A stretch of 20,597 nucleotides of DNA from a virus (IMGVR_UViG_2534681697_000013), one strand, 5' to 3'; positions 2,421 to 14,145 are shown, counted from the stretch's first letter. A program made the numbers and translations. Notes: a model not told the origin generated them from the letters alone.

Positions 2421-3298
2421 AAACGTCCACCATTCCCACCCTTCTGGGGCCGGACGGCATGACATCGCTGCGTGAATATGCCGGTTATCACGGCGGTGGC
2501 AGCGGATTTGGTGGGCAGTTGCGGGCGTGGAACCCACCGGGTGAAAGTGTGGATGCAGCCCTGCTGCCCAACTTTACCCGTGGCAATGCCCGCGCAGACG
2601 ATCTGGTACGCAATAACGGCTATGCCGCCAACGCCATCCAGTTGCATCAGGATCATATCGTCGGGTCTTTTTTCCGGCTCAGTCATCGCCCAAGCTGGCG
2701 CTATCTGGGCATCGGGGAGGAAGAAGCCCGTGCCTTTTCCCGCGAGGTTGAAGCGGCATGGAAAGAGTTTGCCGAGGATGACTGCTGCTGCATTGACGTT
2801 GAGCGAAAACGCACGTTTACCATGATGATTCGGGAAGGTGTGGCCATGCACGCCTTTAACGGTGAACTGTTCGTTCAGGCCACCTGGGATACCAGTCCCT
2901 CGCGACTGTTCCGGACACAGTTCCGGATGGTCAGCCCGAAGCGCATCAGCAACCCGAACAATACCGGCGACAGCCGGAACTGCCGTGCCGGTGTGCAGAT
3001 TAATGACAGCGGTGCGGCGCTGGGATATTACGTCAGCGAGGACGGCTATCCTGGCTGGATGCCGCAGAAATGGACATGGATACCCCGTGAGTTACCCGGC
3101 GGGCGCGCCTCGTTCATTCACGTTTTTGAACCCGTGGAGGACGGGCAGACCCGCGGTGCAAATGTGTTTTACAGCGTGATGGAGCAGATGAAGATGCTCG
3201 ACACACTGCAGAACACGCAGCTGCAGAGCGCCATTGTGAAGGCGATTTATGTCTATCATCTCACCGTAGTTGCCCGCATCGTTCGCCAACTCCACTGA
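2417..3298 (+). pseudogene. B: Portal protein gpB, N-terminal part (2417..3246), running into 17 foreign codons after the insertion junction
   Basis: Translation [28 protein letters not shown]...LQSAIVKA is portal-like, then becomes IYVYHLTVVARIVRQLH*. The rest of the portal ORF resumes at 14146. Confidence 0.9.
3239..3246. other. Left junction core (attL-like) AAGGCGAT
   Basis: The same 8-mer lies at 14138..14145, with imperfect extensions tTATGtC versus gTATGcC. Portal-like sequence stops and resumes exactly at these copies. Confidence 0.6.
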
Positions 3299-3374
3299 AA
3301 CCCTTGCTGCGTCTGGAATGTCGTTTTCCATGCTTTTGATGACCGTTCATCACCCTTCCAGTTTTTCGCGGTTT

Positions 3375-3428
3375 TGTGTATTGCAATGTGTATTGCAAAT
3401 TGGCGATCGGGATGGGTGTGTATTGCAA
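3375..3428 (+). repeat. Three direct copies of TGTGTATTGCAA (3375..3386, 3387..3398, 3417..3428); candidate integrase arm-type sites
   Basis: Exact 12-mers between the left junction and the int start; two more copies sit just inside the right junction. Confidence 0.55.
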
Positions 3429-3446
3429 ATCTCTTGAGGGCTTTTA

Positions 3447-4688
3447 ATGGCTATTGAAAACAAACTCAGTGACAAACTGTTAAAGAGTCTTGTCGGAAAA
3501 CGGCAGGACAAACAAAAAACAATAGCGGATGGGCGCGGGTTGTCTGTGCGTGTAAGCATGGTTGGGGGGATCAGCTTTGTTTTTTACTATCGTCTTGGTG
3601 GCAGGGAATCCCCTCCGGTATGGCTTACACTTGGTCGCTATCCTGACATGTCTCTTGCAACGGCCAGGCGCATGCGTGATCAGTGCCGTGAATGGCTGGC
3701 TGAAAATCTGGACCCCCGCAGGCAAATAAAACTTGCTGCCGAAAAAACTATGCAACCAGTGACCGTAAGGGATGCGCTGTTTTACTGGTACGACAATCAC
3801 GCCACAACAGCCAGAAAAGAGCATGAATATTTAATAAAACGATTTGAAAAGCATATCTTCCCCTATATCGGTGATATGGCTATAGAACAGTGCAAATTAC
3901 ACACATGGCTTACCGTCTTTGACAGGATCAAAAAAAATGCGCCTGTTATGTCTGGTGCAATTTTTCTTGATATCAAACAGGCGTTGCGTTTTTGTCGCGT
4001 CAGGCAATACATCGCGTGCGATCCCTTTGGAGATATTAACGTAAGTTATGTCGGGCGCTCATCCGGTATAAGGGATCGCGTTCTTAATATCAATGAAACC
4101 GCTGATGTATGGTCTTATGCTTACGGTAATAATTTGCTAACTCTGTCATCAATATATAACCGAAGAATAATGGTTATCTGCTTGGTGTTTGGTTGCCGAC
4201 AGCAGGAGGCGAGGCTATCCACCTGGGACGAATGGGATTTAAAAAACTGGGTATGGACAGTCCCAAAAGAGCACAGCAAAAACAAGGAGGCTATAGTAAG
4301 GCCTGTTCCTGACGGAATAAAACAATGGATCGTTAATCTTTACGCAGAAACAAAAAATCGCGGTTATGTTGTCGGTTGTGCTTTGCAAAGGGCGACAATA
4401 ACAGGGGCTGCAAACAGAATATGCAGGCGTCTTGGTCATGATACTAATGGCTTGTGGTGCATACATGATTTCAGGCGCACATTTTCCACTACGCTTAATG
4501 ATATGGGGGCGGATCCTTATATTGTCGAACTTCTTTTAGGTCATAAAGTGAAAGGGGTTGCTGGTGTTTACAATAAAAGCAGGCATATAAAGAAAAAACT
4601 TGAGGTGCTTAATATGTGGGTTAATTACCTTAATACGATAGCAGGATTTAACAACAACGTTATCGAGCTTAATAAAGAGGTGGTGTGA
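3447..4688 (+). CDS. int: Tyrosine recombinase / integrase (P4-type), 413 aa
   Basis: ORF with upstream GAGGG; C-terminal HDFRRTF...LLGHK...GVAGVYNKS is the tyrosine recombinase catalytic region. AT-richer than the flanking lambda genes. Confidence 0.92.
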   Translation: MAIENKLSDKLLKSLVGKRQDKQKTIADGRGLSVRVSMVGGISFVFYYRLGGRESPPVWLTLGRYPDMSLATARRMRDQCREWLAENLDPRRQIKLAAEKTMQPVTVRDALFYWYDNHATTARKEHEYLIKRFEKHIFPYIGDMAIEQCKLHTWLTVFDRIKKNAPVMSGAIFLDIKQALRFCRVRQYIACDPFGDINVSYVGRSSGIRDRVLNINETADVWSYAYGNNLLTLSSIYNRRIMVICLVFGCRQQEARLSTWDEWDLKNWVWTVPKEHSKNKEAIVRPVPDGIKQWIVNLYAETKNRGYVVGCALQRATITGAANRICRRLGHDTNGLWCIHDFRRTFSTTLNDMGADPYIVELLLGHKVKGVAGVYNKSRHIKKKLEVLNMWVNYLNTIAGFNNNVIELNKEVV

Positions 4689-4689
4689 T

Positions 4690-4947
4690 ATGGCAATTTA
4701 TTCTCTTGTTGATGAAAACGATTTGCGCACAATGAAGGACATTGATCGGTTCATTCGTGAAAAAGAGTGCATAGCACTTACCACGCTGGCAAACTCAACA
4801 CGCTGGAAAATGGAGCAGGCAGGTAAATTCCCGCGACGTATCAAGATCGGTGAACGTGCTGCAGGGTATCGACTTTCAGAGGTTCAGGCATGGATCCGTG
4901 GTGAGTGGCATCCTGGATGGAAACCTGGAAAAACAAAACAGCAATAA
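4690..4947 (+). CDS. alpA: AlpA-family wHTH regulator / excisionase-like protein, 85 aa
   Basis: Starts 2 nt after int stop; motif IALTTLANSTRWKMEQAGKFPRRIKIGERAAGYRLSEVQAWI matches the AlpA family. Confidence 0.8.
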   Translation: MAIYSLVDENDLRTMKDIDRFIREKECIALTTLANSTRWKMEQAGKFPRRIKIGERAAGYRLSEVQAWIRGEWHPGWKPGKTKQQ

Positions 4948-4960
4948 CCAGTAAATAATG

Positions 4961-4983
4961 CCCCTCATCACGAGGGGTTTTTT
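4961..4983 (+). terminator. Intrinsic terminator after alpA
   Basis: Stem CCCCTC / GAGGGG with loop ATCAC, followed by TTTTTT. Confidence 0.7.
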
Positions 4984-13035: not shown

Positions 13036-13046
13036 CGTAGTACGCT

Positions 13047-13328
13047 ATGACTGAATCCGAAATACTGCGATTAATCCGCCGTGCTTGTGGAATCAGCAAG
13101 CAGCATGACGAACAGGCCACGCAGCCGGACAGCGTGACCGCAGATAATTATGTGCGTGTAGTGGCTGAGGTGATGCGCCGTGACGGTATTGAGCTTAACG
13201 GCGTGGATATGCGCAACATACGAACAAGAGTCCTTGAGTTGCTGGCATATCGTCGCCGTTCTCAACAACGGAGGGAGAGCGCGAAAAATACTTACCAGTG
13301 GAAGAAGCCGGAACGATTGCGGCGGTAA
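13047..13328 (+). CDS. Hypothetical protein, 93 aa
   Basis: ORF 12 nt after the small terminase stop; no strong Shine-Dalgarno; function unknown. Confidence 0.45.
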   Translation: MTESEILRLIRRACGISKQHDEQATQPDSVTADNYVRVVAEVMRRDGIELNGVDMRNIRTRVLELLAYRRRSQQRRESAKNTYQWKKPERLRR

Positions 13329-13579
13329 CTTGCTGATATTCCCGATAACGCAAAATTGCGCTGGCTGACTTGTTGCATTGCAAAAAGTTAAGCAGGAAGG
13401 CACGGCCTGTAAGATGGGATGCAGTAAGTAGTTCAAGGCTACCTTGTGCTGGCACGCACAGTTAAGCCGTCGGTGCTGGATATCCCCCACTGGGGGAAAA
13501 GCTGGCTACATCCCTCACATCTGAGGACTGATAACGCGACATTGCGCTGGCTGGCAAAGTGCAAAATTGCACGATGGCC

Positions 13580-13726
13580 TAACCCATTGATTATTTCGAA
13601 AACCTGCAATGCAGGAAATCGGGGAAGTAAGCCTAAGCTATTGATTGTTTCGAAAACCCCCATTGGGGGATGTCGGGAAAGTAAGACTAACCCATTGATT
13701 CTTCCACAATCCTCAATTTGAGGAGG
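13580..13726. repeat. Tandem direct repeats of about 54 bp (2.5 copies), each with a short inverted repeat
   Basis: Units begin TAACCCATTGATTATTTCGAAAACC, TAAGCTATTGATTGTTTCGAAAACC and TAACCCATTGATTCTTCC; each contains a small palindrome (CTGCAATGCAG, CCCCCATTGGGGG, CCTCAATTTGAGG) and ends GG(G)AAGTAAG(C/A)C. Confidence 0.55.
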
Positions 13727-14041
13727 CCGGAACGTCTACATAGCTGCATCGCCGTAATGATGATTCAGCCCACCAGCCAAATCAGCACAGCAACGACAGA
13801 ATAGCCCGACACAGAAAAACCACGAATATGGGGTTTTTGTTATGACATGGTCATGATGACCACTCATACAAAACAGGTAAAGCCCACCAGCCTGATTAAA
13901 GGTTAACCGGAAAAAAGCCAGGTATCCAATCTCGATATGGGGATCCCTATATCGACATTAACGCCCACTAAAACTGTGCATATATGCATAGAAAAAGCAT
14001 CCACCAGCTTTATGACGGATGCCGCTCATCTTATAAATAAT

Positions 14042-14065
14042 CGTGTATTGCAGTGTGTATTGCGA
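14042..14065 (+). repeat. Two direct copies of (C/T)GTGTATTGC(A/G) (14042..14052, 14054..14065); candidate arm-type sites at the right end
   Basis: Same motif and orientation as the three copies upstream of int. Confidence 0.5.
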
Positions 14066-14137
14066 CTCCTTTAAACGATAGGTCTGAGCATTCGTAATGT
14101 ACTGTTTTTAAATTTTATTTTTTCCTGTCTTTTCATA

Positions 14138-14145
14138 AAGGCGAT
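14138..14145. other. Right junction core (attR-like) AAGGCGAT
   Basis: Direct repeat of 3239..3246; portal-like sequence resumes in frame immediately after. Confidence 0.6.

Follow-up and report, generated by a model that had tools for sequence, protein, structure and literature searches.

We have analysed the viral sequence IMGVR_UViG_2534681697_000013, a stretch of 20,597 nucleotides (nt) that we call the window, and found that the portal gene of its lambda-like prophage, the helper, is split by inserted DNA. The insert is very probably a helper-embedded phage-inducible chromosomal island (HE-PICI) of the site group B:Phage_portal_2:241, whose integrase (Int) recombines the core block AAGGCGAT and whose excision would gate the portal gene, with the present copy an abandoned one. 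HE-PICIs were described by Tommasini, Mageeney and Williams (NAR Genom Bioinform 2023; PMC10111431). As the exact site and a near-identical element were published in 2023 among ~500 examples, the window adds an instance and not a discovery; structure and interpretation were already known, and the instance is a degraded one.

The portal gene and the integration site

As read from the open reading frames (ORFs), the lambda B-type portal frame is broken at 3246/14146. Joining 2417-3246 (830 nt) to 14146-14917 (772 nt) gives a frame of 1602 nt, which corresponds to 533 codons plus a stop with no internal stops, and the rejoined product matches Pfam Phage_portal_2 from end to end (E = 1.3e-96). The initial annotation had proposed that the frame resumes at 14146 in the matching phase and that the two B parts form one portal ORF, and both proposals are borne out. 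In the split gene, the N-terminal fragment runs through 17 foreign codons past 3246 and ends at a stop at 3298. A tblastn search within the insert found no portal homologue. Since the attP of the insert carries no replacement portal sequence, the portal gene is truly disrupted. The features that define the site are the following.

2417..3246 (+), 5' portion of the helper portal gene, comprising codons 1-276 and a further 2 nt
3239..3246 (+), identity block AAGGCGAT at attL (crossover region); the block is given by Tommasini et al. for B_Phage_portal_2_241
3375..3397 (+), doubled arm-type motif tgTGTATTGCaatgTGTATTGCa, starting ~132 nt downstream of the core centre
3417-3427, third, single copy of the arm motif, in the same left-end region as tgTGTATTGCaatgTGTATTGCa
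14042-14064, upstream doubled arm motif cgTGTATTGCagtgTGTATTGCg, half-sites beginning 94 and 82 nt before the core
14138..14145 (+), identity block AAGGCGAT at attR
14146..14917 (+), 3' portion of the helper portal gene, 772 nt with the stop codon counted

The gene without the insert is found in other strains. The rejoined 800-bp portal segment is uninterrupted in 3,108 of 5,426 complete E. coli genomes at identities up to 99.9%, and these empty-site loci carry the annotation 'phage portal protein'. An uninterrupted B gene, for which the initial annotation had suggested looking in related prophages, is thus on record. The same core is present at both junctions, again as first proposed, and its octamer spans codons 275-277 of the portal gene. 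We would like to point out that AAGGCGAT is also present at 7775 and 18832, so that the 8-mer by itself is not significant; what carries significance at the junctions is that phase is restored exactly and that empty sites exist. With a single copy of the core included, the element spans 3247-14145 (or, equivalently, 3239-14137) and is 10,899 bp long. Precise excision is predicted to leave attB AAGGCGATGTATGCC (...GTGAAGGCGATGTATGCC...) in a continuous portal gene and to create the attP junction CATAAAGGCGATTTATGTC.

The repeats that had been noticed inside both junctions are copies of TGTATTGC, which occurs seven times in the window against 0.77 expected, a count reached by none of 100 shuffles. 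Five of the seven copies are co-oriented (at 3377, 3389, 3419, 14044 and 14056) and lie no more than ~180 nt from the junctions. The attP of HE-PICIs is known to carry the doubled motif tgTGTATTGCantgTGTATTGCa, with two co-oriented copies on each side of the core at distances of 81 +/- 2 and 132 +/- 2 (PMC10111431). The window shows this arrangement of arm motifs, with an upstream distance that varies with the reference point chosen. Its junctions also match the published attL and attR alignments apart from single-nucleotide helper polymorphisms: the attL stretch has one difference from the quoted Eco10269 row, and the portal flank of attR has a few allelic differences.

The same site is used again and again. 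The int-alpA segment was found in 65 of the 5,426 complete E. coli genomes, and in all 40 matches listed (65 genomes) it lies with a split portal gene annotated 'phage portal protein'. The same arrangement extends over at least 80% of the window in 48 complete genomes; none of the 5,426 has an identical full-length match, the best matches covering 85%. Three loci were read closely, namely L001 (CP015912, the best match), which is a DLP12-like prophage, L002, which is a Qin-like prophage, and L003 (E. coli SCU-106, NZ_CP053234), a lambdoid prophage that appears complete and carries exo/bet/gam, cI, cII, O/P and Q. In all three, the two portal parts are annotated as pseudogenes, 'missing C-terminus' and 'missing N-terminus', and the att cores, their flanking bases and the motif offsets are identical to those of the window. 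The satellites of L001, L002 and L003 are 99.9%, 99.6% and 93.2% identical to that of the window, while the helper flanks are ~97-98% identical. This uncoupled divergence of satellite and flanks indicates independent insertions at one nucleotide position.

The catalogue of Tommasini et al. comprises 491 HE-PICIs that occupy 14 sites within lambda late-gene cognates, including three mapped in B, and lists ~100 rows under the site label B:Phage_portal_2:241 (PMC10111431). One of these rows, Eco4028.11.B_Phage_portal_2_241 (CP015912.1/4478746-4489644), has the identity block 'aaggcgat' (PMC10111431) and is likewise 10,899 bp long. The Int of the window is identical to the Int of Eco4028.11 at 413 of 413 residues. 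HE-PICI integrases form one clade, the subclades of which track the sites (PMC10111431), and the window Int is, judged by its sequence, a member of this clade and of its portal-site subclade.

Gene content of the satellite

The insert has the organization of a Gram-negative PICI, with int followed by a co-directed alpA, a primase, a length of 10,899 bp within 10-15 kb, and the order Integration-Bro-Replication-Late, which is the four-zone layout described for HE-PICIs (PMC10111431). The initial annotation had taken the insert for a satellite-like element integrated site-specifically, with an integrase gene just inside the left junction; its PICI-type genes, the 413-aa integrase at 3447-4688 and the identical junctions in three helper prophages agree with that view. 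The satellite features are listed below.

3447..4688 (+), tyrosine integrase, 413 aa, ~200 nt inside the left junction (Pfam Arm-DNA-bind_3, Phage_int_M, Phage_integrase)
4690..4947 (+), AlpA, excisionase/transcription activator family, directly after int (Pfam Phage_AlpA, E = 5e-14)
4960-4978, terminator-like hairpin behind alpA
5004..5582 (+), Bro-N domain protein, anti-repressor-like, 192 aa (Pfam Bro-N; phrog_2593 anti-repressor, E = 4e-85)
5916..6221 (-), YlcI/YnfO-family small protein, 101 aa, the sole minus-strand gene of the satellite (annotated in L001 and L002; phrog_6522)
6283-6311 (+), promoter-like (sigma-70-like) site between the YlcI/YnfO gene and the Icd-like operon
6412-6609 (+), Icd-like protein, 66 aa (annotated in L001)
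6602-6787, 6787-6978 and 6979-7200 (+), three small ORFs (PHROG families of unknown function)
7218-7517 (+), DUF4222 protein, replication module (Pfam)
7514-9268 (+), D5_N/DUF5906/Pox_D5 primase-helicase, replication module (Pfam)
from 9617 (+), small protein (PHROG, phrog_1231)
9865-10287 (+), SSB (Pfam, PHROG)
10507..11545 (+), satellite major capsid gene, lambda E homologue (its C-terminal piece matches Pfam Phage_cap_E)
11555..11896 (+), satellite head decoration protein, lambda D homologue (Pfam HDPD)
11908..12291 (+), second AlpA-family helix-turn-helix protein, 127 aa, located in the late zone after the D-like gene and before cos (Pfam Phage_AlpA, E = 8e-9; phrog_2790)
12316..12381 (+), satellite cos site, with the exact lambda cosN 12-mer GGGCGGCGACCT at 12348-12359
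12493-13035 (+), Nu1-like small terminase, terS (Pfam Phage_Nu1)
13047-13328 (+), 93-aa protein of unknown function (phrog_1561)
13329..14137 (+), non-coding right arm of the satellite, ~810 nt, without an ORF
13577-13738, three tandem 54-nt units within the right arm, each with a different short palindrome

The late zone ties the satellite to lambdoid phages. Its cos site shares 94% identity with the helper cos region that precedes nohD in L001 and 95% with the corresponding sites of lambda, HK629, HK630 and DE3, the DE3 site being annotated 'cos site'. The Nu1, D and E homologues of the satellite share 37%, 38% and 41% amino-acid identity with those of the helper. Homologues of helper A, W, B, C, FI and FII were not detectable within the insert by tblastn, and no tail or holin family was found among the satellite ORFs scanned with Pfam and PHROG. 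Having no terminase large subunit, portal, protease/scaffold, connector, tail or lysis genes, the satellite must borrow them from a lambdoid helper. Moreover, since it has no portal of its own, the satellite too needs the very gene that its insertion interrupts.

When the whole satellite was used as query, none of the deposited phage or plasmid records proved to contain it. With deposited phages the satellite shares only a 65-bp cos segment, which matches lambda-like phages, and mosaic pieces of the satellite match other PICI-like islands.

Several of the smaller genes deserve comment. The Bro-N gene is whole in the window and in L002 but has lost its frame in L001, where a C run differs by 1 nt (window 5239; L001 20689); homopolymer indels therefore vary among satellite copies that are otherwise 99.9% identical. 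The YlcI/YnfO-family gene faces the Icd-like operon and is for this reason a possible regulatory gene; the helper prophages also hold a gene of this family just upstream of cos/Nu1 (14600-14833 in L001 and 15904-16137 in L002). A 356-aa ORF at 5539-6609 was dropped as a gene, as only its last 60 residues have a match (Icd-like), and it also overlaps the annotated minus-strand YlcI/YnfO gene and the 66-aa Icd-like gene. The second AlpA-family protein is 32% identical to the first over 53 aa and could be a regulator of late genes or packaging, apart from the excision-linked AlpA.

The right arm is almost unchanged in L003, where it is identical at 816 of 817 positions in a satellite that is otherwise only ~93% identical. 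The full block is present in only 49 complete E. coli genomes, while fragments of it are present in ~1,200. Each of its 54-nt units has a conserved box (…CCCATTGATTnTTTCGAAAAC…) followed by its own perfect palindrome, CCTGCAATGCAGG, CCCCCATTGGGGG or CCTCAATTTGAGG, and the arm also contains a 24-nt direct repeat at 13344 and 13530. RNA folding of the three repeats gave a z-score of -1.96, which is not decisive. No Rfam match was found in the satellite at the gathering threshold or at E <= 1, including the C4/isrK immunity RNAs that have been reported for some HE-PICIs. The right arm could hold iterons, a crr-like site, binding sites for regulators, or small RNAs.

Proposed excision switch and the state of this copy

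How excision could gate the portal is suggested by 11capE, the HE-PICI of a sister group in gene E. After induction, 11capE passes through excision of the composite, replication of the composite and then excision of the satellite, which reached 42-98% of composite copies at 2-3 h (PMC10111431). By analogy, we propose that on induction the composite of helper and satellite would be excised and replicated as a single molecule. A late transcript antiterminated by Q could then pass Nu1-A-W-B' into int-alpA, and as a consequence of this read-through Int and AlpA would be made late. Together, they would excise the satellite at a late stage, restoring the portal gene of 533 codons and freeing a circular satellite, which would replicate with its own primase. 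The helper terminase (A), directed by the Nu1-like subunit of the satellite, may next cut the satellite cos, and the satellite would be packaged into heads that use the restored helper portal and perhaps also its own E and D homologues. As the portal would be restored by excision, the supply of portal, and hence all head assembly, would be gated by excision of the satellite.

The orientation of the genes fits this scheme: the insertion is co-oriented with the late operon, with the main satellite genes on the plus strand like helper Nu1-A-W-B-C-D-E. In the interval from the portal fragment to int (3298 to 3447), neither a terminator nor a promoter was predicted on the plus strand.

The present copy is damaged in both satellite and helper. 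The remaining features of the helper are the following.

1..317 (+), 3' part of a small terminase gene of the Nu1/nohD type, cut off by the start of the window (alignment with nohD of L001; frame-3 stop at 317)
292..2217 (+), terminase large subunit, lambda A cognate, 641-aa ORF (annotated in L001)
2214..2420 (+), head-tail joining protein, lambda W cognate, 68-aa ORF (annotated in L001)
14898..16217 (+), S49 protease/scaffold gene, lambda C/Nu3 cognate (annotated in L001)
16227..16490 (+), decoration gene D, with an 85-bp deletion near 16361 (the extra 85 bp are present in all of L001-L003)
16527..17552 (+), major capsid gene E, 341 aa
17603..20353 (-), ISSfl3, IS66 family, 2,751 bp, with tnpA, tnpB and transposase (Pfam DDE_Tnp_IS66; terminal inverted repeats)

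The frame of helper D is lost after about residue 45, and the D homologue of the satellite (11555-11896) is intact. ISSfl3, which is 99.5% identical to annotated copies of this element, sits after codon 3 of helper FI (ATG at 17594). Its flanks, TGACGAAA and TTTACAGG, differ over 8 bp, so a target duplication is absent, and the 244 bp beyond it (20354-20597) belong to an unrelated minus-strand gene for a 'recombinase family protein' that is present in only 26 complete E. coli genomes. From these sequences, the ISSfl3 end looks like an IS-mediated deletion or rearrangement that took away the rest of the helper. The name ISSfl3 derives from Shigella flexneri and is perhaps a hint of a source that is Shigella or EIEC-like. 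In the satellite, the capsid gene departs from those of L001-L003 in that it lacks 1 nt of an A8 run at 10563 and has one additional A at 10793. It could be a pseudogene or, at least at the homopolymer site, reflect a sequencing error.

Several observations weigh against an excision-gated portal at work in this sequence. Owing to its two indels, the satellite capsid gene reads as three frame pieces. The resident helper has no FI, FII or adjacent tail genes, and has lost its normal D as well. The predicted circular attP junction TCTTTTCATAAAGGCGATTTATGTCTAT was not found in IMG/VR viral contigs or in metagenome contigs of the JGI; this null is uninformative because these collections hold little E. 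coli virome data. For read-through from the late promoter into int-alpA, which would time the switch, we have gene orientation and a consensus scan to go by. Of all HE-PICIs, experimental data, on excision included, exist only for 11capE, a member of the sister group in gene E, and even there virions could not be recovered (PMC10111431). We found no later literature with experiments on the portal-site group.

Part of this damage bears on the idea, put forward in the initial annotation, that the phage can make no portal until the element leaves. The disruption of the gene without a replacement stands, as does the logic, which was proposed in 2023, but the resident helper is truncated and mutated, so that the coupling of excision to the portal is probably inoperative with this prophage. 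We consider it most likely that this copy is an 'abandoned' HE-PICI, mobile only with another lambdoid helper. Abandoned HE-PICIs have been mentioned before (PMC10111431).

One may go further and read the whole composite as a fossil left by a dead-end insertion, in which the satellite is stranded in a prophage remnant, is passed on by vertical descent only and takes no part in excision-coupled regulation. We find this about equally easy to accept and to doubt. The deletion in helper D, the ISSfl3 in FI with no target duplication and unrelated DNA beyond it, and the two capsid-gene indels all speak for decay, as does the report that many HE-PICI helpers look truncated (PMC10111431). However, the window has undamaged versions of Int, AlpA, the two att cores, the arm motifs, the primase, cos and terS, and copies of the satellite in other strains match it at 99.9% identity. 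These intact functions and near-identical copies suggest that the satellite could still excise, mobilised by a superinfecting or co-resident lambdoid phage; the fossil reading would in any case be limited to this copy and not extend to the element type. It is also possible, though rather unlikely, that interference and not timing is the main effect, in which case the split portal would cripple the prophage, cut the yield of the helper and thereby protect the host or favour the satellite, with restoration of the portal incidental or inefficient. The true disruption of the gene by an element whose attP brings no replacement would be consistent with this, as would the E, D and Nu1 homologues, which are typical of capsid and packaging redirection, and a reduced helper yield was proposed by Tommasini et al. 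themselves (PMC10111431). Against it, the satellite has no portal of its own and also requires the restored gene, and the excision of 42-98% in 11capE argues for efficient restoration in the sister group (PMC10111431). Interference and timing are not mutually exclusive.

The position of the insert leaves little room for chance. One might imagine that an ordinary PICI integrated by accident, off target, where the sequence resembles its chromosomal attB, as the core is just 8 bp with chance copies elsewhere in the window and off-target integrations of HE-PICIs are on record (PMC10111431), but it is hardly credible: the 40 int-alpA matches listed (65 genomes) are all found at the portal gene, three different prophages have the same junctions, and ~100 catalogued elements share this site, with integrases that form a site-specific subclade (PMC10111431). 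We give practically no credence to the view that the internal sequence is native to the portal region, for instance as a moron or an intron-like segment. Co-orientation with the late operon is all that speaks for it, and it is already refuted by the portal gene being uninterrupted in 3,108 genomes and by deposited phage genomes, which lack the insert and match only over the 65-bp cos segment; the insert, moreover, is equipped with int, att repeats and modules of its own for replication and packaging.

We return to the HE-PICI with an excision-gated portal. As the satellite has no portal, excision is perhaps, in the portal-site group specifically, an obligatory checkpoint for both partners and, combined with the E, D and Nu1 homologues of the satellite, such a checkpoint could set the order and size class of the heads that are made. 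The right arm may, for its part, be an undescribed cis-acting or RNA module of these satellites. We hold these two readings to be doubtful.

Relation to known satellites and gene switches

By residing within a head gene that its own helper cannot do without, a satellite would be copied and transcribed by the helper in cis, and morphogenesis of the helper would have to wait for its excision. Such embedded satellites complicate the annotation of prophages and of satellites alike. The element in the window shares with the HE-PICIs of B:Phage_portal_2:241 the target codon, the aaggcgat block, the doubled TGTATTGC arm motif with its spacing and the four zones. There is no difference in kind; the capsid indels, the D deletion and the truncation by ISSfl3 are specific to the window. 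Likewise, 11capE (E:Phage_cap_E:80, E. coli NRG857c) has an integrase of the same clade, is embedded and co-oriented, disrupts a late gene without replacement, uses cos-type packaging and carries a satellite copy of the capsid gene. It differs in its target, gene E, in its 10-bp core and in having no terS, whereas the window element has a Nu1-like terS and does not duplicate the gene that it interrupts.

Classical Gram-negative PICIs such as EcCICFT073 (Fillol-Salom et al. 2018, 2019) are integrated in chromosomal genes and have contact with their helper only in trans. EcCICFT073 reportedly redirects packaging by Rpp and not by a Nu1 homologue. The window element resembles these islands in its int-alpA pair, its primase-type replicase, its length of ~11 kb, its lambdoid cos packaging and its lack of tail and lysis genes. 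The capsid-forming PICIs (cf-PICIs) of Alqurainy et al. (2023) reportedly encode a portal, head-tail connector and adaptor of their own along with all else that heads and packaging require, and borrow only tails. The satellite in the window also codes for its own major capsid protein and small terminase, but it has only E-, D- and Nu1-like genes and no portal, protease, terminase large subunit or connector, which sets it apart from the cf-PICIs. With respect to P4-like satellites, whose core set (SatelliteFinder markers) is psu, delta, sid, epsilon and alpha, the D5_N and Pox_D5 domains of P4 alpha are also found in the satellite primase. No family name of the capsid-size or Psu/Sid type turned up among the scanned ORFs, P4-specific profiles not being part of the search.

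The closest parallels to the proposed switch are elements such as skin in sigK, SPbeta in spsM and phi10403S in comK, each of which splits a gene that is restored by timed, precise excision. The initial annotation had drawn a parallel to prophage-excision gene switches; this is the same idea as that of Tommasini et al., who read the gene disruption by HE-PICIs as 'regulated gene integrity' serving the satellite and likened it to active lysogeny of the skin type (PMC10111431). In skin, SPbeta and phi10403S, the interrupted gene is that of the host, and the switch serves host development or infection. In contrast, the gene interrupted in the window is part of another mobile element, and the beneficiary of the switch would be the satellite, so that regulated gene integrity would be extended to conflicts between mobile elements.

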